Assembly (NCBI GenBank): GCA_048882385.1
Contig: JBHLRQ010000024.1
Span: forward strand, 14,075-36,901
Direction: 5' to 3'
DNA from: Candidatus Thorarchaeota archaeon
GTDB lineage: Archaea; Asgardarchaeota; Thorarchaeia; Thorarchaeales; Thorarchaeaceae
DNA: 22,827 bases
The translations under genes and the position numbers were made by a program. This document shows positions 2 to 19,230 of the stretch, piece by piece. The notes under the pieces were generated by a model. The model saw only the letters and a list, made by a program, of their open reading frames with translations, did not search any database and was not told where the DNA came from. Every line of letters starts with the position of its first letter. The first letter of the stretch is position 1.

Positions 2-1150
2 GAAGGGCTTGATATTGAGCCAACAGTATGCGCGAGGTGTGGTTTCTGCACCTTTGTGTGTCCAGCATATCTGGATACCTTATGGGATTCTCAGTCACCT
101 AGAGGAAAATTGTTCCAATTGAGGTCACTCATCAAAGAGAACAAGCCAATCCCAAAGGATTTTGCAGAAAGAATCTTCTACTGCACATTATGCGGTGCTT
201 GTCAAGAAATTTGTCAAACAAACATACCTCTTCTAAGATTTTGGCAACTCACAAGACAAGAGATTGGAGAACTCAATCAATGGCCCGAGATTGTGAACTA
301 CATTGATGATTCTCTTCAACAATCGCAGAATATTATGGAAATGGACCAGGCTGACAGAACGCTATGGACAGACATGGTAGATGATCTTGTTGAAGACAAA
401 ATTGGCATAGAGGCAGAGGTTGCTTATTTTGCAGGATGCAACATCTCATTCAAAGGAACTCTTGCACATATGGGTGAAAACACAATCAAGATTATGGATG
501 CAGCTGGAGTTGATTTCACTATTCTTGGTGATGACGAATTCTGTTGTGGAAACCCATACTTTGTAGCAGGCGGCTTTGAAAAAGGAAAAGAACTTGCTAT
601 GCACAATCTAAGATCTCTCAAGAATCTTGGCGTTAAGACTGTTGTATTCAATTGCCCAGGATGTCATCGGGCATTCGCAGAAGAATACCCGCACCTTCTA
701 GGAAAGGAAGCTGTTGAAGGACTTGAATTCCTTCCATTTTCAGAGTTTGTTCTTAGACTACTAAAAGAAGGCAAAATCAAATTCAACAAGGAATACTCTG
801 AAGAGGTAGTATGGCATGACCCATGCGAACTCGGAAGACATCAGAATATCTACAATCCAGCACGTGAGGTTCTGAATTCTATTCCAGGTCTCAAATTAAA
901 AGAGATGAAACACAATCGAAACAAAGCTAGATGCTGCGGAGGTGGAGGGCTGCTAAAAGGAACATATCCTGTTGCATCAGTCAGAGTTTCAGCTAGACGA
1001 ATTGAGGAAGCAGAAAAGACTGGGGCTTCCATTCTATCTAGTGAGTGTCCCTCGTGTACCATGTCCCTGAATGATGGTATCGAGAACCGTGAATCAAAAA
1101 TCAAATTCAAAGACCTGTCCCAAATTGTAGCGGAGGCGTTGGGTCTATAG
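2..1150 (+). CDS. (Fe-S)-binding protein, HdrD/GlcF/GlpC-like (2x 4Fe-4S ferredoxin motifs + 2 CCG domains); 5'-partial
   Basis: The frame is open from base 2 (EGLDIEPTVCARCGFCTFVCP), so the track's start at 56 cuts a CxxCxxCxxxCP motif. Second motif CTLCGACQEIC. CCG domains YFAGC..CCGNP..CPGC and HDPC..CCGGGG..CPSC. Confidence 0.9.
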   Translation, partial: EGLDIEPTVCARCGFCTFVCPAYLDTLWDSQSPRGKLFQLRSLIKENKPIPKDFAERIFYCTLCGACQEICQTNIPLLRFWQLTRQEIGELNQWPEIVNYIDDSLQQSQNIMEMDQADRTLWTDMVDDLVEDKIGIEAEVAYFAGCNISFKGTLAHMGENTIKIMDAAGVDFTILGDDEFCCGNPYFVAGGFEKGKELAMHNLRSLKNLGVKTVVFNCPGCHRAFAEEYPHLLGKEAVEGLEFLPFSEFVLRLLKEGKIKFNKEYSEEVVWHDPCELGRHQNIYNPAREVLNSIPGLKLKEMKHNRNKARCCGGGGLLKGTYPVASVRVSARRIEEAEKTGASILSSECPSCTMSLNDGIENRESKIKFKDLSQIVAEALGL

Positions 1151-1162
1151 GTGGTTATAGAT

Positions 1163-2884
1163 ATGATTAGAAACAAACATCTACAAAATCTGGCTGACAT
1201 AGTGGGTGAGGACTACTTCTCTTCCGAAGCATATATGATTAAACTCTACTCACATGATATCGCGGCTTTGCCAGGGATAGTCAATGATGTTCTAAATCCA
1301 AATGCCGATGCTGTAGCTCAACCAACGACTTCTGAAATCGTTTCAAATCTCTTGAAATACTGTAAACAGAATCAAATTCCAGTAGTTCCAAGAGGACATG
1401 GAACTAGCGGCTATGGAGGTGCACTACCTACCCGCGGAGGACTTGTCCTTGAAATGACTAGAATGAATAAGATATACAACATCGATAAACAAAACATGAC
1501 TGTCGAGGTGGGCTCAGGTATTATCTGGGGAAAGCTGATAGAAGAACTTGAAGATGAAGGTCTGACTGTAGCTGCTTATCCCTCGAGTGCACCATCCAGT
1601 ACTGTTGGCGGATGGGTAGCGGCTGGTGGAAGCGGTATTGGAAGTACAAAATATGGGGGTATTGCAGAACAAGTAGTAGACCTTGAAGTTGTTCTTCCGG
1701 ATGGAGAAATAATCAGATCAAAAGATACTTCTGAGGAATTCTTGAAACCTAAAACAGGAAGTCGAGTTTTCAAAGGGAGTGACAGCTTCTACGCTGACGT
1801 GAGCGAAAGTATTCCTTATTCTTCAGAATCAACACAGTTATTTGTGGATAGTAATGGAACACTCGGAGTCATAACGAAAGTTGTCTTGAAAATCATACCA
1901 CTGAGACATATTCGACCTACGACCTCATCTTTTCGAAGTCAAAATCTAATGGTAGCAGCTCTTCAAGATATTCTGGAAGCGACAAGACCATTCTATTTGC
2001 ATTTCATCACGGATAGGTTTACGCAGATGCTCAAAGAGGTTGATCAAGCCCCACCAACTGGTGGAGAATTCATAATCTCTTGTGCATTTGAAGGAACAGA
2101 TGATGAAATAGAAGCTGAAATTGAGAAGCTCAAACATATTGTAAGTAGACATAGTGGTGCGCTCGAATCGAGGGAGGTTGCTGAGCACGAATGGGCAGAA
2201 CGGTTTTACCCCATGAGGATTAAACGTCTGGGTCCCAGTCTAGCACCTTCGGAAGTTTATGTCCCGTTGGAAAATTTGGACGGCTATCTGAATCATATGA
2301 ATAAGCATTTCAAAAGTGAAGACTTCGCACTTGAGGGAGCCATCACAGATCGCGGAGAAGTTGCAGTACTTACATGGTTCCCTGACGATGAACGACGTCG
2401 GATTTCATTCCTGATGGGATGGTATCGCTCTCTTGATGTCATTAACATCGGTCTGAAACATGGAGGTAGAGCATATTCTATTGGTATGTGGAACGCTGCC
2501 CATTCAAGAAGTTTCTATGGGAAAGAGAATTACACGAAGATGTCAACTCTGAAACAGAAGACCGATAAGAAAGGATATCTAAACTCTCACAAAGTCTTTC
2601 CTGGACCCTTGGTGCTTAGCACGCGTATGAATTTACTTATCATGTTCGTTGCAGCGATAGTGGCACCCATCGTGATTTGGGTAGCTAGACTTTTGGTACC
2701 TTCTATATTCCTTGCGTATGTGCCGTGGATAATAGTAAACGACATTCCTAGTTTCCTAATCTGGGCAACCGTAGGGTTACTTGTAGGTTTCATTGTAACA
2801 GAATTTGCTAATCTAATACCAATAACAGTAGTGCTTTCTATAGGCACTCCATTCCTGAGATTGGGTAGGAGGATTTTCCACTAA
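1163..2884 (+). CDS. FAD-binding oxidoreductase (FAD_binding_4 + FAD-oxidase_C; GlcD/D-LDH/AGPS superfamily) with C-terminal transmembrane anchor
   Basis: PVVPRGHGTSGYGGA, PSSAPSSTVGGW, GTLGVITKVVLK and D..GYLN..K motifs, then about 80 largely hydrophobic residues. ATG at 1163 is preceded by AGGTGG. The ORF track starts at GTG 1151. Confidence 0.88.
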   Translation: MIRNKHLQNLADIVGEDYFSSEAYMIKLYSHDIAALPGIVNDVLNPNADAVAQPTTSEIVSNLLKYCKQNQIPVVPRGHGTSGYGGALPTRGGLVLEMTRMNKIYNIDKQNMTVEVGSGIIWGKLIEELEDEGLTVAAYPSSAPSSTVGGWVAAGGSGIGSTKYGGIAEQVVDLEVVLPDGEIIRSKDTSEEFLKPKTGSRVFKGSDSFYADVSESIPYSSESTQLFVDSNGTLGVITKVVLKIIPLRHIRPTTSSFRSQNLMVAALQDILEATRPFYLHFITDRFTQMLKEVDQAPPTGGEFIISCAFEGTDDEIEAEIEKLKHIVSRHSGALESREVAEHEWAERFYPMRIKRLGPSLAPSEVYVPLENLDGYLNHMNKHFKSEDFALEGAITDRGEVAVLTWFPDDERRRISFLMGWYRSLDVINIGLKHGGRAYSIGMWNAAHSRSFYGKENYTKMSTLKQKTDKKGYLNSHKVFPGPLVLSTRMNLLIMFVAAIVAPIVIWVARLLVPSIFLAYVPWIIVNDIPSFLIWATVGLLVGFIVTEFANLIPITVVLSIGTPFLRLGRRIFH

Positions 2885-2894
2885 AAAAGGAGGA

Positions 2895-3077
2895 GTGAAC
2901 TATATTGGTGGTGACAGAAGTCTGAACGTGATGGAGAAATCAAAGAATTTCTCAATTTGTGGGGCAACAGAGGACCATTCAGTAATATTTCATTCCGTTT
3001 CATATTACATGAACATGGAGATTCTTGATTTGATTTCTGGAGAGAAAACATGGCTCAATAAAACTGGAGGCGTCTAA
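2895..3077 (+). CDS. possible small hypothetical protein (48-60 aa)
   Basis: Fills the gap between two operon genes and its stop abuts the next TTG. No recognisable motif, so it may be non-coding. Confidence 0.25.
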   Translation: MNYIGGDRSLNVMEKSKNFSICGATEDHSVIFHSVSYYMNMEILDLISGEKTWLNKTGGV

Positions 3078-3488
3078 TTGACAACAAATTTACTAATTAA
3101 TCAGTTTCAAGCAATGCAAATCGATAACTTTCACATGACCATTTGGCTGGGGCTCCCAGCTCTGATTCTCTTGTACATTGGAACTGCGTTGTATTATATT
3201 TCGCAGGAGAAGTATACGTTTATACATGGTCTGTGTGCGGGTCTTGCACTTTTACTGACAACAATCAATATTGTAGCAATTCTACCCCTAACAGATACGG
3301 TTCTAAGGACGGGTGGAGCTGACTTATTTCATTTGATTCATATTGGTTTGGGAATCATAGGATATCTTGCAGGGATTGGAGCCTTTCTTACTGGAATATC
3401 AGGTATTCGAACTCATATTCCAGGACTTACTGCAGCTACTTGTTGGACTATTGTGTTTGTAATGGGCTATATCCAGTTTATTGCATAG
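3078..3488 (+). CDS. small 4-TM membrane protein, putative di-heme cytochrome b (cytochrome b561-like)
   Basis: GGAGG lies 7 nt before TTG. Four hydrophobic segments each open with a His: H19 (NFHM), H50 (FIHG), H88 (IHIGLG), H113 (THIPG). The CDS is well supported; the function is inferred. Confidence 0.65.
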   Translation: MTTNLLINQFQAMQIDNFHMTIWLGLPALILLYIGTALYYISQEKYTFIHGLCAGLALLLTTINIVAILPLTDTVLRTGGADLFHLIHIGLGIIGYLAGIGAFLTGISGIRTHIPGLTAATCWTIVFVMGYIQFIA

Positions 3489-3502
3489 GAGAGAGAAGAG
3501 AG

Positions 3503-4981
3503 ATGACTACGACAGAAGAAATCAAAGAGTTGGCTGATGTTTCTTGGATAAGTGATCTCACTGCAGAGAGACTGTCAGCAAGCGGAGATACGACAGGGAT
3601 TCCTTACTATCACTATAGGTGGAAAAAGAAATGGTTGGCTGATTATGTCGCATGGCCTGAAACAAGTAATCAAGTTGCATCTATCATGAATTTAGCTACT
3701 AAGAAGAAAATCCCAGTTATTCCTAGAGGTGGAGGAACCTGTTATTATGGATCTGCAAGTCCAACAAGAGGCGGTATTGTTCTGGACACTAAAAGAATGG
3801 ACCGAATAGTAGAGGTCAACAAGGAGGAGAAATGGGTCCATGTTCAAGCTGGAGCGGTCTGGGAGGTTTTGAATAACGAGTTAGCCAAGGAAGGATTCGT
3901 ACTTCCTGTCGCACCACAGAGCGCAGTAGCATCTACACTTGCAGGGTGGCTTGCAATTGGTGGAAGGGCTGGAATTGGAACACCCAAGTTTGGCTCTATG
4001 ATAGATAATGTTCTTGAGATGGAAGTTGTAAGACCAAATGGAAGTATAGAAACAGTCACAGGAGAGGACATGTTATCATTCTATGGGACATCAGGAATAG
4101 CAGGGACTGTAAGTTCTATGAAAATGAGAATAATCCCTATTCCTGAGATTATTGATGGAAGGATGTTTGCTTATCAGGAACTTGAGAAGGCAATTGATGC
4201 GGTGATTAGACTTAGCAAGACCAAAGTTCAACCAATCTATCTCCGCCTCACAGATCTTGAATATGAATGGCGCATTCAGGGGGGTTTACCCCCTAAGACG
4301 AAAGGTCTGTTCTTCGTGACTGTAACATACGGTGGGTCATCTGAGGAAGTCGAAGAGTCACTTAAGATTGCTCGAGGAATATTCGAAATTGCTGGAGGTT
4401 TGGAGATGCCTCACAGCTATTATCAAAGAAATTGGGATGACAGATACATCGTTGAAATGAAACTCAAACTTGAGGTACCAACTCTATCTATGCAGAATTT
4501 TTGGGTGCCATTAGATCATGTTGAGCCTATCGTGAGAAAAATGTACAAGATAGCACACAACTATCGAATTAACTCCTGTTTCTATCTGGTGCTTGGAGGA
4601 AATGCGAAGGCTCGACTTTGTGTGTTTGCGCCTTCAGATCACAGACATTGGATGCACTTCATGTCAGGCAAAGCAATGTTGCATAGGTTGGTCAAAACTA
4701 TGTATCGACTGGGTGATAAACTCTATACACTCGGCCTTCAAAATACAGTCTATGTAAAGAAGTTTCAACCTGAGGATTACAAACGATACAAACAGCTTCG
4801 GCAAGATTGGGATCCGAAGGGGATTATGAATCCAGACAAATTGACACATTGCAATATGTCATACACTAGGATGAACCTGATGTTTACTATGAACGGATAT
4901 TTCAGACGATTGCAATCTATCCTTAGACGAGCGAAGAATATCTTAGAAATTCCAGTTGCATATCAGGAGGGACCTATCTAA
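3503..4981 (+). CDS. second FAD-binding oxidoreductase (GlcD/AGPS superfamily), soluble paralog
   Basis: PVIPRGGGTCYYGSA, PQSAVASTLAGW and DPKGIMNPDK motifs. ATG at 3503 follows a purine-rich SD. The track start (3440) overlaps the upstream gene. Confidence 0.88.
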   Translation: MTTTEEIKELADVSWISDLTAERLSASGDTTGIPYYHYRWKKKWLADYVAWPETSNQVASIMNLATKKKIPVIPRGGGTCYYGSASPTRGGIVLDTKRMDRIVEVNKEEKWVHVQAGAVWEVLNNELAKEGFVLPVAPQSAVASTLAGWLAIGGRAGIGTPKFGSMIDNVLEMEVVRPNGSIETVTGEDMLSFYGTSGIAGTVSSMKMRIIPIPEIIDGRMFAYQELEKAIDAVIRLSKTKVQPIYLRLTDLEYEWRIQGGLPPKTKGLFFVTVTYGGSSEEVEESLKIARGIFEIAGGLEMPHSYYQRNWDDRYIVEMKLKLEVPTLSMQNFWVPLDHVEPIVRKMYKIAHNYRINSCFYLVLGGNAKARLCVFAPSDHRHWMHFMSGKAMLHRLVKTMYRLGDKLYTLGLQNTVYVKKFQPEDYKRYKQLRQDWDPKGIMNPDKLTHCNMSYTRMNLMFTMNGYFRRLQSILRRAKNILEIPVAYQEGPI

Positions 4982-6198
4982 TGAGGAGATTTTTCACACC
5001 TGAACTTGATGTTGATCCAGATCAGATTGTCTTGTGCAGTAATTGTTCAACATGTAGATGGACATGTACAAGCTATGAGGAATTCCAATCAGAAGCAATG
5101 TTTGCAGGAGGCAGACTTCGTCTCCTACGATCCTATGTTGAGAAGAACCTGCCTGTGGATGAGGGATTCGTCAGAGCTGTGTATGCATGCAGCACATGTG
5201 AACAGTGTGTTGAGAGATGTCCAATCAAAGTACCATATGTTAGAATAATTGAAAATGTGAGGAAGAAACTAGTACAATTGGGCAAGGGACCCTATGGAAA
5301 ATTGCATGTGATGGGAGACCTGGCATTCAAGCACAACAATGTCTTCGGTGAAAAACCGCAGGAAAGGGCTAGCTGGGTCAAACCAGATACGAGGATCTCT
5401 GAGGATTCTAATTGGGCATACTTTGTGGGATGTACCGCGTCCTACAAAAGACCAGAGATAGCAGATGCGACCTTGCGAATGCTCAACTACTTCGATATAG
5501 AACCTCAGATTCTGGGAGCTGATGAGGTCTGTTGTACAAGTCCACTGATAAGAACAGGACAGGTTGTCAGACCAATCTATGAAGAATCAGAGGATGGAGA
5601 AAAAGATCTACTTGGAAATTTAGAGGTAGAGAAGTTCATTCTCCATAATGTGGAACAGATGAAAAAACGAGGTATTGAACATGTAATATTCTCATGCTCG
5701 GGATGCTACCGAACGACAACTCTCGATTGGCCACAATACTATCGAGAAAGACATGGAATTCTACCTTTTTCGACTCAACATCTAACACAGTTTCTTGCAC
5801 TTAAGCTAAAGAAGGGAGAGCTGAAGTGGAAAGGAAGCTATCCAGAAACCGTGACATATCATGACCCTTGTCACTTGGGACGTCACGTTGGAATATTCGA
5901 AGCACCAAGACAAGTCATTAAGAGTATTCCTGGAATCAACTTTGTCGAGATGGAAAGAAATCGGCAGAACTCTGTATGTTGTGGAGCTGGAGGTGGATTC
6001 AAAGCTGGATTTGGAGAAAATTCAGTAAACGTAGCGGCGAGAAGATTGCAGCAAGCCCTTGACACTGGTGCTACAAGCATCATTTCCTCTTGCGTATTCT
6101 GCAAACTGAATTTCTTAGATGCTGTCAAGAAAAAGGATATCGATATCAAGGTGCTCAACATCGAAGACCTTTTCATCAGTCTTATGGAACTTGATTAG
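4981..6198 (+). CDS. (Fe-S)-binding protein, HdrD/GlcF-like (2x 4Fe-4S + 2 CCG domains)
   Basis: CSNCSTCRWTC, CSTCEQCVERCP, FVGC..CCTSP..CSGC and HDPCHLGR..CCGAGGG..CVFC. TAATG overlap with the upstream gene, with GGAGG upstream. Confidence 0.92.
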   Translation: MRRFFTPELDVDPDQIVLCSNCSTCRWTCTSYEEFQSEAMFAGGRLRLLRSYVEKNLPVDEGFVRAVYACSTCEQCVERCPIKVPYVRIIENVRKKLVQLGKGPYGKLHVMGDLAFKHNNVFGEKPQERASWVKPDTRISEDSNWAYFVGCTASYKRPEIADATLRMLNYFDIEPQILGADEVCCTSPLIRTGQVVRPIYEESEDGEKDLLGNLEVEKFILHNVEQMKKRGIEHVIFSCSGCYRTTTLDWPQYYRERHGILPFSTQHLTQFLALKLKKGELKWKGSYPETVTYHDPCHLGRHVGIFEAPRQVIKSIPGINFVEMERNRQNSVCCGAGGGFKAGFGENSVNVAARRLQQALDTGATSIISSCVFCKLNFLDAVKKKDIDIKVLNIEDLFISLMELD

Positions 6199-6211
6199 TA
6201 TTCAGAAGAAG

Positions 6212-6257
6212 TAATGTGAAAATGGATGCCAGTTGTTACTGTGCATCCATCACATTA
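6212..6257. terminator. long stem-loop (19 bp, two bulges) between the oxidoreductase cluster and ccmA; terminator/processing/stability element
   Basis: TAATGTG-(AAA)-ATGGATGC-CAGT-[TGTT]-ACTG-(T)-GCATCCAT-CACATTA; all pairs are Watson-Crick. Confidence 0.6.
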
Positions 6258-6288
6258 AATAGGGGAACCAAGAGGGTTCGAGAAGCCA

Positions 6289-6981
6289 GTGGGTGAACTG
6301 TTAGTGACAAAAGCAGTTGAAGCAAATGAGCTAACTCGACGATATGGATATCGTGTCGCTCTTAGAAAAGTTTCACTTGAGTATACAGTTGGTGGAATCC
6401 ATGGACTTTTTGGTGCTAACGGAGCTGGAAAGACAACTCTGATGAGGGTCATTTCCACTCTCTTGCGCCCTCATGGTGGATCCATCTCTGTCCTAGGTTT
6501 TGACCCACAAGAGGATCCAGAAGAAGTGAAAAAACGGTTTGGATTAGTTGGAGACAAACTGCTTCTCTATGAGGAACTTACTGGAATTGAGAATCTTCAG
6601 TTCTATGCCAAGCTATATGATTTGTCATCAGATTTCTTTGAAACCCAGGTGGAGGTGTTAGCCCCACGTTTTGCAATAAAATCCTGGCTGGAAGAACCAG
6701 TGAAGAATCTATCAACAGGACTTAAGAAAAGAATAGATATCGTGAGAAGTCTAATTCACAATCCTGAACTACTTCTTCTTGATGAACCATTCAGCGGATT
6801 GGACAAAGACACAACTGAGGACTTTTGGGAGTATCTTCAGGAGTATCGAAAATTGAGAACGACAATCGTGACAACGCATAATCTATCATTTGGTGCTGAA
6901 TTGTGCGATGATTTTGTCACGCTCAGAAAGGGTATAGTTGTTAGTCAAGGACCAATTTCTGAGTTTGATCAGACACTCTGA
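6289..6981 (+). CDS. ccmA: heme ABC exporter ATP-binding subunit CcmA
   Basis: Walker A GANGAGKTT, signature LSTG, Walker B LLLLDEPF, H-loop TTH; directly upstream of ccmB/ccmC. Confidence 0.85.
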   Translation: MGELLVTKAVEANELTRRYGYRVALRKVSLEYTVGGIHGLFGANGAGKTTLMRVISTLLRPHGGSISVLGFDPQEDPEEVKKRFGLVGDKLLLYEELTGIENLQFYAKLYDLSSDFFETQVEVLAPRFAIKSWLEEPVKNLSTGLKKRIDIVRSLIHNPELLLLDEPFSGLDKDTTEDFWEYLQEYRKLRTTIVTTHNLSFGAELCDDFVTLRKGIVVSQGPISEFDQTL

Positions 6982-6987
6982 GGTGGC

Positions 6988-7671
6988 ATGATGACATCAG
7001 GTTTCGGTGCAGCTCTGGCAATAGCAAAGAAAGACATTCTTACGCAATTTCGAAAGAAGTTCGAAGCATTTTCTATGTTCTTGTTTGCATTGATTGCAGT
7101 CCTAGCTTTCTCCTTTGCTTTGGTTTCAGATGAAGGTATTCCACAAGATGTTGGGAGTGCAATGTTGTGGGTGATCATATTCTTTACAGGTATGTTTGGA
7201 TTTGCACCAATTTTCCTATCAGAATCAGAAACAGGAACATTACGAGGTCTCGCAACAGCACCTATTCCAGCCTGGTCTGTTTACTTGGGAAAAGTGTTCT
7301 ATGGTTTCGTCTTGATGGGGATCGTGGAAATAGCGCTGGTACCAATAATCACAGTGCTATTCGGATTCTCATTTCAAAATGATATTCCACTTACAATAGC
7401 CACTCTTTTTGTTGGCACATTAGACCTAGCGGCAGTCGGATCTATGGCATCCGCACTCACCATGCCATCAGAATCAAAAGCAACAGTCTTCCCGCTTGTG
7501 TATTTTCCCACAGCAATTTCAGGGCTAATGTTGTTGATTGAAATTACAAAAATAATCGTGATTGGTCCAGGTCTGATTCCAGTTTTGTCAATCTTTGGAA
7601 TTCTCATCGCCCATCTTATAGCTATGTTGACACTATCTGCATCTGTGTTCCACTTTGCGCTTTCGCCATGA
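6988..7671 (+). CDS. ccmB: heme exporter membrane subunit CcmB
   Basis: About 6 TM segments; IAKKD.., LWVIIFF, F..E.E.GTL..L..AP and YLGK motifs; ccm context. Confidence 0.88.
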   Translation: MMTSGFGAALAIAKKDILTQFRKKFEAFSMFLFALIAVLAFSFALVSDEGIPQDVGSAMLWVIIFFTGMFGFAPIFLSESETGTLRGLATAPIPAWSVYLGKVFYGFVLMGIVEIALVPIITVLFGFSFQNDIPLTIATLFVGTLDLAAVGSMASALTMPSESKATVFPLVYFPTAISGLMLLIEITKIIVIGPGLIPVLSIFGILIAHLIAMLTLSASVFHFALSP

Positions 7672-7740
7672 AGCTATTGTTAATACAAAACCTTCATATT
7701 GTAAATAGTGAAGTGCCGCGGCAATTCGAGTTGAAAAGCC

Positions 7741-8409
7741 TTGAGCAATAGAAGATTGATAATCCTCGGAGTTACAGCAGCGATATCACTCCTCTATGTT
7801 TACATGACATGGATATTCGCTCCACCAGATATTCTACTTGGAGAGAATGTTCGCATCTTCTTTCAACATGTAGCCCCTGCTCTTGTAGCATACGGACTTT
7901 TTGGTGGAACATTGCTTTGCGGAGTGATGTATCTCTGGAAAGGAGATATGAAATATGACCTGCTTGGGGCTGTATCAATCAAGCTCGGTTTGTTGTTCAC
8001 AACCATAACCCTATTGAGTGGCATGATGTGGGCTGATGCAGCTTGGAATTCGCCTTGGAATTGGGATCCTAGAGAAACAACGACATTAATTCTATGGGTA
8101 GCTTATGCTTGTATTCTTGCATATCGTGCCTCTGTTAGTGACAGAGAATCGAGAGCACAGTTTGGTTCTATCTTTGGAATAGTTGCTTTCCCCATGGTGC
8201 TTCTAAGTTACCTATCAATTCGAATCTGGGAAACCCTTCATCCAATTGTCATTGAAACTACAGGTCTTCAAATGGAAGTTGAACACATGATGACTCTGTT
8301 AGTTGCAATGATTGCAGTCACCATGATTGCATTGATTTTGGTTGATCTATCATACAAAGTTGATTCAGCACATGAGAAGTTGATGAGAATAAGAATCGAA
8401 AGGAGTTAA
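7741..8409 (+). CDS. ccmC: cytochrome c biogenesis protein CcmC
   Basis: Trp-rich WWD motif GMMWADAAWNSPWNWDPRET; flanking heme-ligand His in RIFFQHV and TLHP. Confidence 0.93.
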   Translation: MSNRRLIILGVTAAISLLYVYMTWIFAPPDILLGENVRIFFQHVAPALVAYGLFGGTLLCGVMYLWKGDMKYDLLGAVSIKLGLLFTTITLLSGMMWADAAWNSPWNWDPRETTTLILWVAYACILAYRASVSDRESRAQFGSIFGIVAFPMVLLSYLSIRIWETLHPIVIETTGLQMEVEHMMTLLVAMIAVTMIALILVDLSYKVDSAHEKLMRIRIERS

Positions 8410-8413
8410 TGTA

Positions 8414-8554
8414 ATGCAGCAAGTCGAACTATTTGTTGTAGCCGTGATTTTCTGGGGTGGTATCTTCGCGTTCTTAGCATATCTTTTATTGAGAATGAGG
8501 GGAATTGAAAAACAACTCAAGATTGTAGAATCTCAGATTGATGGAGAGCAATAG
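8414..8554 (+). CDS. ccmD: CcmD-like small single-TM protein (46 aa; not in ORF track)
   Basis: Manual translation MQQVELFVVAVIFWGGIFAFLAYLLLRMRGIEKQLKIVESQIDGEQ: one TM plus a charged helical tail. AGGAG SD at 8401. It sits between ccmC and ccmE with 4- and 2-nt gaps. Confidence 0.78.
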   Translation: MQQVELFVVAVIFWGGIFAFLAYLLLRMRGIEKQLKIVESQIDGEQ

Positions 8555-8556
8555 AA

Positions 8557-8943
8557 ATGAAAAAGAGAACCAGAATGGCACTAGTTGCAGTTGTCTTAGT
8601 CGCCACTATTGGTTTTGTTGCCTACGGTATGCTCAACCTGTTTGTAGACCCCTATCTCAGTGTTGATAATGTTGTTGAGGATCCTGAAGCGTATATGGGT
8701 CGAACCATCCAAGTCAAGGGTGCTCTTCAACCAGGATCTCTAACCATATCTGCAGAAAATGTGACACTGGTCATTGAGGGTGACAACTACACCATCACGG
8801 TTTTGGTTGTTGGCGAAGTCCCAGATATGATCGATGGTCAAGACATCGTTGCTATTGGGACATTAGAACCAGCTGGTTACATTCGAGCAACTGAGATTTT
8901 GACATCGTGTCCAAGTAGGTACGAAGCAACTACAACCTCGTGA
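8557..8943 (+). CDS. ccmE: heme chaperone CcmE, CxxxY (System I*) type
   Basis: N-terminal TM anchor, OB-fold-like V.G.L.PGS segment, C-terminal A.EILTSCPSRY. Confidence 0.92.
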   Translation: MKKRTRMALVAVVLVATIGFVAYGMLNLFVDPYLSVDNVVEDPEAYMGRTIQVKGALQPGSLTISAENVTLVIEGDNYTITVLVVGEVPDMIDGQDIVAIGTLEPAGYIRATEILTSCPSRYEATTTS

Positions 8944-8945
8944 TA

Positions 8946-9581
8946 TTACTTCCACTCATCACCAAATCGTACTTTTTGACCGTTAGGTCTCTTTTCATGG
9001 GCCCAAGGTACTGGATTTCGTACAAGAATAGAAGCTAGTGTTGCTACACGTGTACCTATTTGGGTGGCCATGTCGATAGCTTCCGTATCAGCTCGAATAT
9101 CACCTGCATTTAGAGCAAAGCCAACAGGCCAGCTCACACTACCAGGTACGATCATTTCCTTGACTAACATAAAGAACTGAATATGTGTTAATGCAAGATC
9201 GGTACCGGATCTTCTTCCAACAACAATTCCAGCTCCAACCTTTCCTTCAAGATGCAAGAATCTTCCAGTTCGATCCAATAGGTTCTTCATGGGTGTAGCA
9301 AGGGATGCATAATGATCAGGAGATCCAAAAATAATTCCATCAGCAGCCTTCATTGTCTTTGCAATCTTGTTTAGGTCATCGTCTATCTTACACTTACCCA
9401 AACGAGAACATTCGGAACAGTGCTCGCAAGCGCCTATATTCAGATCTGCAAGTTCCAAAAATTCAGTCTTTGCACCAGCTAGCTCTGCAGCTTGTAATGC
9501 TGTATCAACTAGGATGGATGTGTTACTGCTTGTCCTTGGACTACCGCAGATACCCATTATACGCGTTCTCAAGTATTGCAC
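8946..9581 (-). CDS. iron-sulfur flavoprotein (Isf / NADPH-dependent FMN reductase, flavodoxin-like family)
   Basis: GICGSPR..SNT FMN loop, compact CEHCSECSRLGKC (Cx2Cx2Cx5C) cluster motif, ADGIIFGSP and MKNLLDR. The start may be TTG at 9572. Confidence 0.88.
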   Translation of the reverse strand: MQYLRTRIMGICGSPRTSSNTSILVDTALQAAELAGAKTEFLELADLNIGACEHCSECSRLGKCKIDDDLNKIAKTMKAADGIIFGSPDHYASLATPMKNLLDRTGRFLHLEGKVGAGIVVGRRSGTDLALTHIQFFMLVKEMIVPGSVSWPVGFALNAGDIRADTEAIDMATQIGTRVATLASILVRNPVPWAHEKRPNGQKVRFGDEWK

Positions 9582-9964: not shown

Positions 9965-12562
9965 GTGAGTAAACAGACCCCGATGCAGAGGCAATACCTT
10001 CAGTTGAAACGCCAGTACCCTGATTGTATTCTCATGTATCAGCTTGGTGATTTCCATGAGATGTTCAATGAGGATGCTAAGATAGCCAGTAGGATCCTTG
10101 ATATTGTTCTCACAGCACGTGGTGAAGGTGTTGATAGATGGCCAATGTGCGGTGTGCCTAATCATTCCGTCGACAGTTACATTGCCAAACTTCTACAGGC
10201 AGGTCATACGGTAGCAATTGCTAGGCAGGTCGAGGATGCTTCAAAAGCGAAGGGATTGGTCAAGCGAGATGTGGTTCGAGTTATCACCCCAGGAACAGTC
10301 TTGGAAAGTACAATGCTTGAGGATACCACCAATAACTACCTTGTTTCACTGGTTGCACATGAAGACAAGATAGGAATTTCTGCGGTTGATGTTTCAACTG
10401 GAGAGTTCTTAGCTGCAGAGTTTGAAGCAGGAATCGATAGTGAAACCACAATGAATGAGATCGTAAAGTTCTCACCCTCAGAAATTCTGCTTCCAGATTC
10501 GGTTTCAAAGTCGAAACTTAAAGTCAAGCTTGAGGAACTTGACATCAGAATTACTTTCCGCAACGACACGGATTACTCAGCTAGAACCGCTGAAGAACGG
10601 ATTAAAGAGCAGTTTGGAGTTTCCACTCTCGATGGCTATGGTTTGACAGACAAACGAGTTGCCTTGGGTGCAGCTGGTTCGATTCTCGCATACCTGAGAG
10701 ATGTCCATAAGTCAGGAACCATCACTGTTTCCGGGATTCGAACATACTCTATCGAAACTCACATGATTGTTGACCCAACAACTCAGCGAAACCTGGAATT
10801 AGTTAGGAATGCGAGAGACGGTAGTACTCGTGGAACACTTCTTTCTGTGCTTTCAAAGACAGTCACACCAATGGGAAAAAGGAAACTGAAGCAATGGATG
10901 TTGAGTCCACTTCAAGATATTGATGCGATAACTTCCAGACAGGATTCTATTGAGGAACTTGCAAGAGATGCTCTGAATAGAAAGGGAATATCAGATAGCT
11001 TGAGAGATCTTGGTGACCTTGAGAGGATAACCAGCAGAATTGTTTTTGGTAGTGCTAATGCACGAGACCTCCTTGCACTAAAGAATGCACTATCCAAGCT
11101 ACCCAAGATAAAGAAGTCACTTGCAGAATGCAAGAGCGACCTGTTAAAGGAATCCAGTAAATCCATTGATCCCCTCTTGAAGTTGCATAAGATGCTCGAG
11201 AACGCCATTTTAGATGAACCTCCGGTTTCAATTCGTGATGGCGGAATGATAAAGAAAGGTTTCAACAAAGAACTGGATGAACTAAAGGAAACCATCGCTT
11301 CTGACAAGAAATGGATTGCATCTCTTCAGGAGTCTGAAAGAAGGAGAACAGGTATCAAGAATCTGAAGGTCGGTTACAACCGTGTCTTCGGATACTATAT
11401 CGAAGTCACAAAATCAAGTCTCTCAATGGTCCCCAAAGAATATGATAGAAAACAGACTCTAGCAAATGCAGAGCGGTATATCACTCCAGAACTTAAGGAG
11501 AAAGAGTCAACAGTACTTGCAGGAGAGGAGAAGATCAATCAGGTCGAATACGAAATCTATGAAGAGTTACGCGATGAAGTCAGAGATGGAGCTGGAATAC
11601 TTCGCCAAGACTCTGGGGCCATCGCAGTCGTTGATGTCTTGACATCTTTAGCAGATGTAGCAGTCACTAGAAGATATGCAAGACCAAAGCTGACAACTGG
11701 AACACGAATCAAGATCGTAGATGGTAGACACGCTTCTCTTGAAGTAATGCTTGGTCCAAATGAGTTTGTTCCTAATGGAATTGAGATTGGTGATGGTGGA
11801 ACCACACTGATGATTGTCACTGGACCTAATATGGCTGGGAAAAGCACATACATGAGACAATGCGCACTTATCGTATTGTTAGCACAGATGGGATCATTCG
11901 TACCAGCTAAAAGCGCTGAGATAGGTCTCGTTGATAGGATTTTTACAAGGGTCGGAGCATTTGACGATCTTACTGCAAGACAAAGCACATTCATGGTCGA
12001 GATGATTGAAACTGCTAACATATTGAATAATGCCACTGAGAGCAGTCTCGTCATTCTAGACGAAATTGGCAGAGGAACCTCGACATTTGATGGGATGGCT
12101 CTCGCTTGGGCTGTGGCTGAGAAGATAGTGCAGATGAAGACACGCGCACTATTTGCAACACACTTCCATCAGTTGACCGACATGGCTACTCAGTATCATG
12201 GTGTGAAGAATGTACATACCTTAGCGAAAGAAACTGGTGATACAATTATTTTCCTCCATAAGGTCGTAGATGGCGGAACTGACAGGAGCTACGGTGTCCA
12301 TGTAGCTGCTCTTGCTGGCGTTCCAGATGAGGTTGTCAAAAGAGCGAAGGAACTCCTTGTTCGGTTGGAGAAGGAAAATATCACAGCTGTCGATATGTCT
12401 GAACCAGGTTTTGACGACACTCATCAAGCAAGTCTTGAAGCACTGGTTATCGATGATCCGATTGTTGAAAGAATTAGAAACATGGACCTAGATAGGACGA
12501 CACCCATAGATGCACTCACTGAGCTGAAGGAGATTCAAGACAAGATAAAACGCCGCGATTAG
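9965..12562 (+). CDS. mutS: DNA mismatch repair protein MutS (MutS1)
   Basis: TPMQRQY, GDFHEMF (Phe-X-Glu), PMCGVP, TGPNMAGKSTY, STFMVEM, LDEIGRGTST and SYGVHVA; all five domains present. Confidence 0.97.
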   Translation: MSKQTPMQRQYLQLKRQYPDCILMYQLGDFHEMFNEDAKIASRILDIVLTARGEGVDRWPMCGVPNHSVDSYIAKLLQAGHTVAIARQVEDASKAKGLVKRDVVRVITPGTVLESTMLEDTTNNYLVSLVAHEDKIGISAVDVSTGEFLAAEFEAGIDSETTMNEIVKFSPSEILLPDSVSKSKLKVKLEELDIRITFRNDTDYSARTAEERIKEQFGVSTLDGYGLTDKRVALGAAGSILAYLRDVHKSGTITVSGIRTYSIETHMIVDPTTQRNLELVRNARDGSTRGTLLSVLSKTVTPMGKRKLKQWMLSPLQDIDAITSRQDSIEELARDALNRKGISDSLRDLGDLERITSRIVFGSANARDLLALKNALSKLPKIKKSLAECKSDLLKESSKSIDPLLKLHKMLENAILDEPPVSIRDGGMIKKGFNKELDELKETIASDKKWIASLQESERRRTGIKNLKVGYNRVFGYYIEVTKSSLSMVPKEYDRKQTLANAERYITPELKEKESTVLAGEEKINQVEYEIYEELRDEVRDGAGILRQDSGAIAVVDVLTSLADVAVTRRYARPKLTTGTRIKIVDGRHASLEVMLGPNEFVPNGIEIGDGGTTLMIVTGPNMAGKSTYMRQCALIVLLAQMGSFVPAKSAEIGLVDRIFTRVGAFDDLTARQSTFMVEMIETANILNNATESSLVILDEIGRGTSTFDGMALAWAVAEKIVQMKTRALFATHFHQLTDMATQYHGVKNVHTLAKETGDTIIFLHKVVDGGTDRSYGVHVAALAGVPDEVVKRAKELLVRLEKENITAVDMSEPGFDDTHQASLEALVIDDPIVERIRNMDLDRTTPIDALTELKEIQDKIKRRD

Positions 12563-17433: not shown

Positions 17434-19230
17434 TTGGGTAGAATCAAGGTTCTCAGTGAAGAGATTGTTTCACTGATATCAGCAGGAGAGGTAATCGAGA
17501 ACCCATCTTCAATAGTCAAAGAACTAATTGAGAACTCACTTGATGCAAGAACAGATATGATTGATATTTCCATTGAGGGGGGAGGAATCGACAGGATCGT
17601 AGTTTCAGACAATGGGACAGGCATTTCACGCGACGATTGTGAGATCTGTCTTCAAAGATATTCAACAAGCAAGATTTCATCGAAGGAAGATATCGATGTG
17701 ATATCCACCTATGGGTTCAGGGGAGAAGCCCTGGCAAGCATTGCTGCTATGGCTGATGTCAGAATAACAACTCAGGCAAAAGAAGAGGACGTTGGAACTC
17801 TTGTAGTTTCGAGAGTGGGTGAACCTCCAATCATTTCTGATTCATCGAGACCTATTGGAACAACGGTTGAAGTTAATGATATCTTCAAAAAGATACCAGC
17901 GAGACGAAAGCATCTATCAAGTCCAAAGGTCGAGGGGCAACGAATTCTGGAAGTAATAATGAAACATGCTGTAATCAGAACAGACGTGGGTTTCAGACTA
18001 GTAAGAGATGATAATGTTGTAATTGATTGTCCTCCAGATCAGAGCGCTATTGATAGAATAACCTACCTTTGGGGCAGTGACATCGCTAAAGGACTTGTGG
18101 AAATTTACTATTCAGAAGAGGGAGTATGGGTTCAAGGTTTTGTAGCAATGCCGCCAATATCTAGAGGGAATCGATCGCGCGAATACTTTGCTGTAGCTAG
18201 AAGACCCATTACTGACGAAAGGTTGAGTAATGCAGTTGAGTCAGCCTATTCGACATTACTCATGAAGGGGCAATACCCAGTTTGTGCCATTGATATTAGC
18301 TTGAATCTTGCAGATGTTGATGTGAATGTTCATCCAACTAAAAGAGAAGTTAGAATACTCGATATCGAAAAAGTAAGCTCTATCGTTACAAAGTCAGTTA
18401 GAGATGCTCTGGGTGTGGACAGACCTAAAGAAGAAAGCCAGACGTTGGAAGTATTTCTTGAGGAGGTCAAAGACGATAGGATTTCAGAAACGCAACCGGA
18501 TCGAGAAGTGAAGCGAGCACAATCAGGACCTTTTCCTCTGATCGAACAAACACTCCTCAAACCAATCATCGATGTTGGTGATGATGAAGACTCAGTGAGT
18601 CTTCTAGGAGGAGTATTCAGGATAGTCGGACAAATTCATCAGCTCTACATTCTCCTTGAAAATGAGGACGGTCTCTTTATCATTGACCAACATGCTGCAC
18701 ATGAAAGAGTCCTGTATGAAGAATTGAGAAAAGAGGTCAATGAACACAGAGTTGCCATCCAAGAGTTGCTTCAACCATTTGTTCTAAGTCTTAGCTCTGT
18801 TGAAACAGAAAGGATTCTTGAGCTTGAAGATATACTTGATGACATTGGATTTACGATTTCGAAATTTGGTGCGAAAGATGTTTCAATTTCCACCGTACCA
18901 GAAATCTTTGGTAAGGTGACATCAGAATCAGAACTAATCTCACTTCTTGATCGAATTGCTACAATTGGCGTTTCAGAAGCACGTGATTCATTTGTTGATG
19001 AACTTGTGAAGCTTGTGGCTTGTCATTCAGCAGTTAGAGCGGGACAAATATTGAATGTGGAAGAAATTCGAAGTTTGATTGAGGATTTCTCAAAAACACA
19101 TGGTATGTATACTTGTTGCCACGGAAGACCCTCAATGATTCAGATAAAGAAGGAAGATATTGACAAGGCTGTTGGAAGACTAGGTTTTGATGCTATTCAA
19201 AGATACAAGAGACGGCACCAAATTGAATGA
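17434..19230 (+). CDS. mutL: DNA mismatch repair endonuclease MutL
   Basis: ISAGEVIE.P..VKELIENSLDA, DNGTG, GFRGEAL and DVNVHPTK; endonuclease motifs DQHAAHERVLYE, ACH and CCHGRP. GAGGTG SD overlaps the upstream stop. Confidence 0.97.
   Translation: MGRIKVLSEEIVSLISAGEVIENPSSIVKELIENSLDARTDMIDISIEGGGIDRIVVSDNGTGISRDDCEICLQRYSTSKISSKEDIDVISTYGFRGEALASIAAMADVRITTQAKEEDVGTLVVSRVGEPPIISDSSRPIGTTVEVNDIFKKIPARRKHLSSPKVEGQRILEVIMKHAVIRTDVGFRLVRDDNVVIDCPPDQSAIDRITYLWGSDIAKGLVEIYYSEEGVWVQGFVAMPPISRGNRSREYFAVARRPITDERLSNAVESAYSTLLMKGQYPVCAIDISLNLADVDVNVHPTKREVRILDIEKVSSIVTKSVRDALGVDRPKEESQTLEVFLEEVKDDRISETQPDREVKRAQSGPFPLIEQTLLKPIIDVGDDEDSVSLLGGVFRIVGQIHQLYILLENEDGLFIIDQHAAHERVLYEELRKEVNEHRVAIQELLQPFVLSLSSVETERILELEDILDDIGFTISKFGAKDVSISTVPEIFGKVTSESELISLLDRIATIGVSEARDSFVDELVKLVACHSAVRAGQILNVEEIRSLIEDFSKTHGMYTCCHGRPSMIQIKKEDIDKAVGRLGFDAIQRYKRRHQIE

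Follow-up and report, generated by a model that had tools for sequence, protein, structure and literature searches.

The stretch of DNA analysed here (the window) comprises 22,827 nucleotides (nt) from a Candidatus Thorarchaeota archaeon, i.e., G000:C24:14075-36901, where G000 denotes the source genome (95% complete) and C24 the contig, and it is directly preceded by a scaffold gap of 100 N (G000:C24:13975-14074). Genes were called from a list of open reading frames (ORFs) together with Pfam and NCBIfam scans of the window. Positions 2-9581 hold a row of genes for putative flavin adenine dinucleotide (FAD) and iron-sulfur (Fe-S) enzymes, a membrane protein with four transmembrane (TM) helices and a cytochrome c maturation (Ccm) system; judging from gene order in relatives, this row is the right-hand end (right-hand third) of a ~25.5 kb optional Thorarchaeota island. 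The features of the row are as follows (lengths in amino acids, aa):

2..1150, + strand: CCG_C, an HdrD/EtfD-like Fe-S protein (Pfam CCG, PF02754, 2.5e-35, in two stretches; Fer4_8/4Fe-4S dicluster, 4.7e-12)
1151..2884, + strand: FADTM_C, a VAO/PCMH-type FAD enzyme with a C-terminal membrane anchor (FAD_binding_4, 5.4e-41; FAD-oxidase_C, 7.6e-10)
2895..3077, + strand: a 60-aa ORF in a 193-nt spacer, most likely no gene (no Pfam family)
3078..3488, + strand: 4TM_D, a 136-aa four-helix membrane protein (no Pfam match; model pLDDT 90)
3503..4981, + strand: FAD_D, a soluble VAO/PCMH-type FAD enzyme (FAD_binding_4, 1e-35)
4981..6198, + strand: CCG_D, an HdrD/EtfD-like Fe-S protein (CCG, 4.5e-27), whose start overlaps the FAD_D stop
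6289..6981, + strand: a ccmA-like ABC ATPase gene (ABC_tran, 3.6e-25)
6988..7671, + strand: ccmB (PF03379, 2.8e-21, above cut-off)
7741..8409, + strand: ccmC (PF01578, Cytochrom_C_asm, 2.7e-28, above cut-off; TIGR01191, 1.1e-25, below cut-off)
8414..8554, + strand: a ccmD-like 46-aa ORF with a single TM helix (TIGR04391, CcmD_alt_fam, 4.9e-4, 20 bits against a cut-off of 24)
8557..8943, + strand: ccmE with an archaeal Cys-type heme site, CPSRY (PF03100, 1.4e-13, above cut-off)
8946..9581, - strand: an FMN_red/iron-sulfur-flavoprotein-like gene, the last of the island (PF03358, 2.4e-29)

A preliminary description of this DNA had listed a co-oriented row of CCG, anchored FAD, 4-His membrane, FAD and CCG genes followed by ccmABCDE, and every one of these genes was found on the + strand at the positions given above. 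Intergenic distances across the row range from -1 to 193 nt. CCG_C is the partner of the anchored FADTM_C, and its 5' end is cut by the scaffold gap; its orthologue in G002, a genome of the same genus with an unbroken contig, has 392 aa. The likely start of FAD_D is the ATG at 3503, and the alternative TTG at 3440 would overlap 4TM_D. The 60-aa ORF is not conserved, with one weak match in relatives (E 0.002 over 35 aa).

Upstream of the window, contig C24 carries the N-terminal part of ccmF and the genes for a 723-aa exported protein and a 484-aa multiheme cytochrome (MHC) and, further, cyc4TM_A (405 aa), FAD_A and CCG_A, an amine-oxidase/HpnE-like flavoprotein gene (AmOx), CCG_B and FADTM_B; a gene for an exported CGSSGCH protein (cyc192-like) on the same contig runs into the N gap. 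In G002, ccmF, the 723-aa gene and the MHC gene lie together on one strand, while the other strand reads cyc4TM_A, FAD_A, CCG_A, AmOx, CCG_B, FADTM_B, cyc192 and mem166 in its first half and CCG_C, FADTM_C, 4TM_D, FAD_D, CCG_D and ccmA-E in its second, followed by the FMN reductase gene and MutS. The mem166 gene of G002 encodes a 166-aa DUF2231-like, His-rich membrane protein with an HPVFVHFH motif (DUF2231, 8.2e-5, below cut-off); it falls in the N gap of G000, where ~0.5 kb of the relatives' sequence is swallowed, and was found nowhere else in the G000 assembly. The ccmF gene of G000 is itself split, with its N part on contig C24 and its C part on contig C128, and corresponds to a single 685-aa gene in G002.

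Altogether, 29 related loci were found. Most are from Candidatus Thorarchaeota archaeon (including SMTZ1-45) and the others carry the less specific archaeal names Promethearchaeota archaeon, "archaeon isolate" or "uncultured archaeon", in agreement with the Asgard origin that had been suggested from the sequence. Local tblastn maps gave the same island gene order in related loci L019-L046. The check proposed in the preliminary description, i.e., whether the linkage of ccm with the 4-TM gene is kept in relatives, came out largely positive: ccmA-B-C-E directly follows CCG_D in five related loci (L019-L023), G002 and G000, and follows it after a 2.4 kb spacer in G346, while a different arrangement occurs in the Asgard family f9 and the linkage is absent in L026. 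As the same order recurs in relatives, the arrangement is not due to chance. In seven loci, ccmF, the 723-aa gene and the MHC gene also lie upstream of cyc4TM_A. In three genomes of the same genus that have no island (G001, G012 and G014), ~1.1 kb separates MutS from the gene next to which ccmF lies in G002, which indicates that the ~25.5 kb block, from ccmF to the FMN reductase gene, is present or absent as a unit at one locus.

The membrane protein 4TM_D belongs to a rare family. A HMMER profile built from 14 Thorarchaeota sequences matched 56 proteins among 1.84 billion (1.84e9) representative proteins, 44 of them at E <= 1e-10 and five at E <= 1e-30, and the named sources of these members were Promethearchaeota and marine sediment metagenome. 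The typical member has ~290 aa, in which a signal peptide is followed by a short motif with CH at its end, an immunoglobulin (Ig)-like domain and the 4-TM domain. Most members thus fuse the 4-TM domain to an exported CH-motif domain (the ectodomain), which 4TM_D does not have. The upstream cyc4TM_A does have it (signal peptide, CGGCH, Ig-like domains, C-terminal 4-TM domain), and its membrane domain is 38% identical to 4TM_D. No fusion of the 4-TM domain to a CCG or FAD protein was found among the 56 family representatives, the longest of which has 406 aa.

The four His residues to which the preliminary description had drawn attention, i.e., H19 on TM1, H50 on TM2 and H85 and H88 on TM3, are invariant in all 14 Thorarchaeota sequences. 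Across 39 family members, H50, H88 and W123 are each conserved in 39/39, H19 in 38/39 and H85 in 29/39. The pattern of b561-type cytochromes, with one conserved His on each of four helices and hence two bis-His pairs, was not found in these members, where position 113 at the entry of TM4 is K in 28/39 and R in 7/39. The loop charges of the family (+1.3, -1.3 and +2.2) fit a topology with the N-terminus outside, as does the fusion to a signal-peptide ectodomain; with this topology, H19 and H88 would lie at the outer face of the membrane and H50 at the inner face. It is possible that the family holds one outer bis-His site formed by H19 and H88.

The relationship of this family to known ones emerged from profile comparison. 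Weak Pfam leads were to DUF420 (6/39 members, best 6.8e-5) and to cytochrome b561 (6/39, best 0.021), and 4TM_D did not match the DUF420 Pfam model (PF04238) even at E up to 1; ESM Atlas matches of the 136-aa protein scored below 0.9 and serve as leads only (b561, DUF4079). Alignment of the 4-TM family with 10 Asgard DUF420 proteins using hhalign gave 91% probability (E 1.1e-6 over 95 columns), with H50, H88 and W123 aligned to the conserved His, His and Trp of DUF420. The AlphaFold model of 4TM_D is a confident four-helix bundle (pLDDT 90), for which Foldseek returned no match in the PDB with E <= 1e-3, and a model of a full-length fusion protein gave only Ig/FN3-like fold matches, for the ectodomain. 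We thus regard the 4-TM protein as a member of a rare DUF420-related family and as a candidate heme b carrier. A reading of it as an HdrE/NarI-type cytochrome b has to be given up, as the protein is DUF420-like instead.

We also surveyed the 4-TM family and the Ccm marker PF01578 (CcmC/F) in a sample of 400 Asgard genomes. The family was found in 89 genomes, i.e., in 42 of the 85 genomes of family f1 plus G000, 37/135 in f9, 7/14 in f26 and 2/4 in f27, and was not found in the other Asgard families sampled; PF01578 was found in 104. Both were present in 74 genomes, the 4-TM family only in 15, Ccm only in 30 and neither in 281. The association was strictest in genus g1 (28 genomes), where 20 genomes had both, none had only one of the two and eight had neither. 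The triad of a 4-TM protein, an FAD enzyme and a CCG protein recurs in all four of the families named (f1, f9, f26 and f27). Its neighbours in f9 (G259 and G293) are ccmF/A/B/C/E, CcdA and a thioredoxin-like gene, and the arrangement differs from that of Thorarchaeota. Among the matches listed for f9, 27 of the 28 genomes with a full-length (ectodomain-bearing) match have PF01578, and six of the seven genomes without PF01578 show only membrane-domain matches. The proteins of f26 have extra TM helices in place of the ectodomain; within this family, Ccm is lacking from G164, and G175 gave a single weak match to PF01578.

The flavin and CCG genes of the island form modules of two types. Type I combines a 4-TM protein (with or without ectodomain) with a soluble FAD enzyme and a CCG protein, and type II a CCG protein with a self-anchored FAD enzyme. 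Sequence identity is 34% between FAD_A and FAD_D and 36% between FADTM_B and FADTM_C, as compared to 25-28% for the cross pairs; CCG_B and CCG_C are 40% identical and the remaining CCG pairs 27-29%. A quick maximum-likelihood tree of 66 FAD subunit sequences separated those of Thorarchaeota into four orthologue groups, which comprise 21, 10, 15 and 12 rows and have SH-aLRT support of 99-100 (99% for the FADTM_C group, which is the one with 12 rows). These identities and the four supported groups suggest that the modules are old and of two types. The pairs in the window, which had been described as duplicated, are thus two of four old paralogous modules and do not represent a recent duplication.

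Both FAD enzymes of the window exceed the Pfam cut-offs for FAD_binding_4 and FAD-oxidase_C, and they are closest to LDHD, LctD, glycolate oxidase and AGPS. The nearest solved protein to FADTM_C is mouse LDHD (8jdb, 5.6e-27), and FAD_D matches LDHD at 6.3e-26 and AGPS at 2.6e-24. Named relatives of FAD_D from Thorarchaeota, Promethearchaeota and Hodarchaeota score more than about 200 bits, with bacterial proteins next at ~120 bits. The anchor of FADTM_C is a hydrophobic C-terminal stretch of ~90 aa with two to three segments, as seen in the alignment and in the membrane segments of the G002 orthologue, and the alignment shows no conserved His in it.

CCG_C and CCG_D each contain two CxxCxxCxxxC motifs and two CCG domains (PF02754 in two stretches), and neither has a hydrophobic segment. 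Eighteen Cys residues, which make up both motifs and the two CCG domains with five Cys each, are invariant in 20 sequences (C19/22/25/29, C70/73/76/80, C151/184/185/239/242 and C297/333/334/371/374). There was no equivalog-level match of the CCG proteins to TfrB, LdhH, GlpC, GlcF, TmcB, DsrK or HdrB, the best being TfrB with 194.6 against 385. The nearest solved relative of CCG_D is EtfD (9ojn_A, 2.6e-29), with HdrB chains weaker (1.3e-07 at best) and HdrC chains also among the matches. In HdrDE of Methanosarcina, a CCG Fe-S subunit is docked on the NarI-like b-type cytochrome HdrE, and the complex takes electrons from methanophenazine and reduces CoM-S-S-CoB. The island resembles HdrDE, which had served as the model in the preliminary description, in pairing a CCG Fe-S subunit with a membrane protein but differs in that no Hdr equivalog cut-off is reached and the membrane family is another one. 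A complex prediction for CCG_D with the 4-TM protein, run without controls, gave a score of 0.00 and a mark of 0.32 and speaks neither for nor against binding.

Two further observations concern FAD/CCG pairs elsewhere. In G314 (family f27), a single 905-aa ORF (L052:10060-12777, - strand) combines an FAD enzyme with a CCG protein and lies beside a 4-TM protein with a CNCH motif; this natural fusion supports joint working of the two cytoplasmic subunits. A fifth pair of an anchored FAD enzyme and a CCG protein, divergently transcribed, is located immediately outside the island (L067, L068, L069 and L026/L034/L054); it shares 31-39% identity with module C and is retained in island-free genomes.

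On the sequence evidence, the Ccm genes make up a complete archaeal-type set, i.e., a ccmA-like gene, ccmB, ccmC, a ccmD-like ORF, ccmE (CxxxY) and ccmF. The ccmA-like gene scores below the specific cut-offs (TIGR01189, 101 against 131.6 bits; PRK13538, 103 against 195) and fits other ABC families better by score; in relatives, too, it precedes ccmB. The N part of the G000 CcmF matches PF01578 at 2.3e-25 and NrfE/CcmF models at 1e-41 to 1e-44, and both PF01578 genes of G000 are on contig C24. The CcmE tail reads CPS[KR]YE in all eight Thorarchaeota loci examined, which corresponds to the CXXXY heme site described for archaeal CcmE in place of HXXXY (PMC9084895). CcmH (PF03918) was not found in G000, which has a DsbD_TM gene elsewhere in the genome. 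The set resembles CcmABCEF of Methanosarcina acetivorans, as that system is presented in the same source (PMC9084895), in the presence of ccmB, C, E and F and of a ccmA-like gene, in the CXXXY type of CcmE and in that no CcmH was found. It differs in forming one operon beside its client cytochromes and in a conserved ccmD-like ORF. While that source reports ccmD as uniformly absent from archaeal genomes (PMC9084895), the ORF was always located between ccmC and ccmE, with 76-89% identity in six loci of the same genus and 42% in G346. This conservation makes the absence of CcmD as a feature of archaeal System I doubtful here.

The preliminary description had also asked whether the genome encodes ccmF and c-type cytochromes, and both were found inside the same island. 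Of the 6321 ORFs in G000 with 80 aa or more, the island MHC is the one that has at least three CxxCH motifs. The second CxxCH-rich ORF (contig C58, two motifs) was rejected as a cytochrome, as it encodes a zinc-ribbon protein. Other exported proteins of the island, which appear to be mono-heme proteins, have the traits expected of c-type cytochromes, i.e., a hydrophobic N-terminus and a CGGCH (cyc4TM_A) or CGSSGCH (cyc192-like) motif, with Ccm in the same island. In the ectodomain of the 4-TM family, CH is invariant in 46 aligned sequences, all of which had been picked as CH-bearing. The spacing of the first Cys varies (CxxCH, Cx3CH, Cx4CH or Cx6CH in Thorarchaeota), a single Cys is found in f9, and the protein of G170, a genome with no Ccm, has AH in place of CH. 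These data suggest that the motif behaves like a c-heme site. The 723-aa protein of the island gave no usable ESM Atlas match.

The MHC (L003:3314-4768, - strand, upstream of the window) has 484 aa, six CxxCH and two Cx4CH motifs and a C-terminal membrane anchor; the counts in its orthologues are 6-7 for CxxCH and 0-2 for Cx4CH, with CxxCK missing from all of them. Its best solved match is OcwA of Thermincola potens (6i5b_A, 4.6e-9), with collinear heme motifs over part of the protein only. NrfA chains match at ~1e-3 over residues 287-427, and PF13435 scores 28.2 bits, above cut-off. Where OcwA has CLKCH, the MHC reads CMHCM, i.e., CxxC followed by Met in place of His. Apart from the partial match, the Thorarchaeota protein differs from OcwA in its motif counts and its C-terminal anchor, and the Thermincola chain upstream of OcwA is quinol-based with other cytochromes. 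Thermincola has a single membrane, and OcwA is presented as the terminal reductase that serves its extracellular electron transfer at the cell surface, and as a member of the NrfA/c554/MccA family that also reduces soluble N compounds and spans a wide potential range (bioRxiv 10.1101/641308).

We propose that the island encodes a transmembrane electron route from flavin/Fe-S enzymes through a membrane heme b to surface c-hemes, probably running outward, and put the probability of this reading at roughly 0.55. A cytoplasmic substrate would be oxidised at FAD, and electrons would pass from FAD through the CCG clusters and then the [4Fe-4S] clusters to heme b on the 4-TM protein, with H19 and H88 at its outer face and H50 at its inner face. 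They would cross the membrane at this heme b and, by way of exported c-type hemes, finally reach the surface MHC, which would reduce a mineral, a humic compound, a partner cell or a soluble N or S compound; the Ccm genes would be there to mature the island's own cytochromes. We infer the cofactors, complex formation, direction, substrates and acceptor of this route from the gene content, conservation, co-inheritance and family relations given above. The outward route appears to fit best because the genes form one heritable block, the association is repeated across Asgard families, EtfD offers a precedent and the surface cytochrome is OcwA-like. The preliminary description had likewise read the genes as a membrane electron-transfer complex, and this part gains support from the conserved linkage and from the presence of ccmF and cytochromes; the GlcD/GlcF label, a cytochrome b of the HdrE/NarI type and a recent duplication are not supported.

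The precedent is EtfD of Mycobacterium smegmatis (9ojn), which is described as passing FAD-derived electrons via CCG clusters and two [4Fe-4S] clusters to a bis-His membrane heme b and on to menaquinone (PMC13083937). EtfD shares with the island proteins the two [4Fe-4S] motifs and two CCG domains, and within it these form a wire from a flavoprotein to heme b; the same source gives EtfD as one 1042-aa chain with five TM helices, ETF as donor and menaquinone as acceptor (PMC13083937). The island, on the other hand, has separate genes, a VAO-type flavoprotein and a DUF420-like 4-TM part that is often fused to a heme c domain, and no quinone markers of the two families searched were found in G000. 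A more specific form of the proposal, to which we would give somewhat less than even odds, is that the island represents an undescribed Thorarchaeota/Loki-type conduit, in which a lineage-restricted protein, with an Ig-like c-heme ectodomain (one Cys or a freely spaced CXnCH) fused to a DUF420-like heme-b bundle, is fed by metal-free flavin/CCG dehydrogenases and matured by Ccm with a CcmD-like subunit, and which would export fermentation electrons to minerals or syntrophs in heme auxotrophs.

Several results weigh against the proposed route. As to linkage, 30 genomes of the Asgard sample have Ccm and no 4-TM family and 15 have the family and no Ccm. Adjacency to ccm is not universal either, as L026 has MutS right after CCG_D; L025 has no ccmA match in its 1.7 kb downstream of CCG_D, and in the divergent loci L032, L038, L039 and L040 neither ccmF nor the 723-aa protein nor the MHC was seen in the ~9-10 kb upstream. 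L026 and the 30 genomes with Ccm only would also be expected if the ccm and FAD/CCG genes were two unrelated operons that came to be neighbours fortuitously. We consider such a coincidence very improbable, since the whole block is gained and lost as one at a fixed locus, genus g1 has both in 20/28 genomes and neither in 8/28, the linkage is found in a different arrangement in f9, and the sole c-type cytochrome candidates of G000 are inside the block.

A second set of results concerns the FAD enzymes, for which an oxidative function is proposed. They resemble GlcDEF, LDHD (8jdb), LctD and YdiJ in that FAD_binding_4 and FAD-oxidase_C domains are paired with a GlcF/CCG-type Fe-S protein, but both score below every NCBIfam equivalog cut-off, and the GlcD and GlcF cut-offs are missed by a wide margin (TIGR00387, GlcD, 164.5 and 140.3 against 567.9 bits). 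In pairwise HMMER alignments to 8jdb, the LDHD positions GHVGDGNFH...GEHG read GAITDRGEVAV...GRAYS in FADTM_C, in a stretch of moderate alignment confidence; the metal-site positions are Ala/Val/Ala in FADTM_C and are unconserved in FAD_D. We take the LDHD metal ligands at the aligned positions to be the His/His/Glu of the active site. As the cut-offs are missed and the LDHD metal site is not conserved, the substrate of the FAD enzymes is not assignable by homology, and the "GlcD/GlcF-type" label of the preliminary description had to be dropped.

The lack of the metal site leaves the oxidative role of the FAD enzymes unestablished, and electrons might instead flow inward, i.e., from an outside donor at the MHC (partner cell, humic compound, reduced mineral or reduced N/S compound) through the c-hemes and heme b to the [4Fe-4S] and CCG clusters and on to a cytoplasmic substrate reduced at CCG or FAD. 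Hdr-type CCG proteins are catalytic reductases (HdrD reduces a disulfide) and HdrB is among the solved matches of CCG_D; in addition, all redox parts of the island are reversible in principle, and the wide potential range reported for OcwA-type cytochromes (10.1101/641308) would suit either direction. We nevertheless consider inward flow rather unlikely: no sequence feature sets the direction, the four flavoenzyme modules look more like several inputs to one outlet, and electrons in the solved relative EtfD are reported to run from flavin to membrane (PMC13083937). Outward flow through the 4-TM protein thus stays the preferred reading, and its outlet has to be considered as well.

Two quinone marker families were searched in G000, i.e., the MqnA family (PF02621) and MenD (TIGR00173); neither was found, which favours cytochromes over quinone as the outlet. 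Enzymes of the GlcDEF and Dld types reduce quinones. Modules B and C, moreover, are anchored by their own helices and have no His-bearing partner in the pair, and EtfD is described as a quinone reductase (PMC13083937). Accordingly, one could envisage that the FAD/CCG modules reduce a lipid-soluble carrier (quinone- or phenazine-like) at the 4-TM or anchor helices and that the cytochromes c are a separate branch. Such a carrier is improbable as compared to the c-type hemes proposed above: the two markers are missing from a genome that is 95% complete, most members of the family have their 4-TM domain fused directly to an exported domain with the CH motif, which points outside, and the family co-occurs with Ccm.

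The membrane protein itself raises further doubts about the proposed route. With three near-universal His residues, none of them on TM4, a relay of two hemes is not assured; the lack of a conserved His on TM4 leaves H50 at the inner face with no evident partner ligand. A wider fold search returned only generic four-helix bundles. In addition, HemB (PF00490) was found in 0/28 genomes of genus g1 and HemC in 0/3 genomes tested (G000, G002 and G013), which suggests that island-bearing Thorarchaeota would need heme from outside. The placing of His at both faces of the membrane is reminiscent of proteins that channel heme. The only DUF420 proteins studied so far according to one report, i.e., CtaM, are not electron carriers but assembly factors needed for active heme-copper oxidases (PMC8239418); a proposed link to heme A synthase is given as disputed (PMC12808453).

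The 4-TM proteins could accordingly act, in the manner of CtaM, in the assembly of cytochromes or in the handling of heme. In heme-auxotrophic Thorarchaeota, the island would then serve to capture heme and to mature cytochromes, and its flavin/Fe-S proteins would maintain cysteines or the iron of heme in the reduced state. Such a role would be in line with the DUF420 relationship, with the absence of HemB and HemC from the genus and with the tight co-occurrence with Ccm. The likeness to CtaM lies in the four-helix membrane protein and in the profile match, in which the invariant His, the TM3 His and the invariant Trp are aligned; the difference is that the 4-TM family is tied to FAD/CCG enzymes and Ccm and mostly has an exported N-terminal domain. 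The 4-TM gene, however, is invariably accompanied by genes for an FAD enzyme and a CCG protein, even in the f26 genomes with no Ccm (G164) or a single weak PF01578 match (G175), and an assembly role would hardly account for four parallel dehydrogenase-like modules or for a terminal cytochrome that is OcwA-like. We therefore give an assembly role little credence and retain the electron route as the preferred reading.

Regardless of the function of the 4-TM protein, 20 of the 28 genomes of genus g1 have Ccm and c-type cytochrome genes though HemB is absent, and are thus apparent heme auxotrophs that make cytochromes. G259 of family f9 has hemB and hemC 11-17 kb from its ccm/4-TM cluster.

Most models of the Asgard archaea, the closest known archaeal relatives of eukaryotes, depict fermentative cells from which partners receive hydrogen or formate. 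Those papers that could be searched mention no cytochromes for Thorarchaeota or report no multiheme cytochromes in Helarchaeota, and no description of the island was found in the literature on Asgard or Thorarchaeota cytochromes, Ccm, GlcD/lactate dehydrogenase and extracellular electron transfer, a search whose scope did not extend to subscription journals and supplements. A search of sequencing runs located the sequence in 20 DNA data sets from seven studies, which include sediment and mangrove sites, and in no RNA run. If the proposed route is correct, part of the Thorarchaeota lineages would gain a direct electrical outlet or inlet, which would change models of their syntrophy and of their role in sediments, and a conduit of this kind would represent a respiratory-like trait in archaeal relatives of eukaryotes. 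The island would also bring a candidate new family of membrane heme proteins, candidate c-heme sites with one Cys or variable spacing under an archaeal Ccm, and candidate cytochrome makers that have no heme synthesis.

Other genes in and around the island were also inspected. AmOx (L003:8877-10220, + strand), located upstream of the window between modules A and B, encodes an amine-oxidase-fold protein that matches HpnE-like proteins at 4.8e-34 and, weakly, protoporphyrinogen oxidase (4.8e-13, below cut-off); its identity across Thorarchaeota loci is 74-94%. The FMN_red-family gene at 8946..9581 encodes a Cys cluster (CEHCSEC...C) and follows ccmE in relatives, and it is lost along with the island at the same locus in G001, G012 and G014. 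Beyond it, the window encodes a full-length bacterial-type MutS with five MutS domains (9965-12562, + strand) and a full-length bacterial-type MutL (17434-19230, + strand), and between these two genes lie a pentose-phosphate pair, i.e., ribulose-phosphate 3-epimerase and transaldolase, and an amidohydrolase gene.

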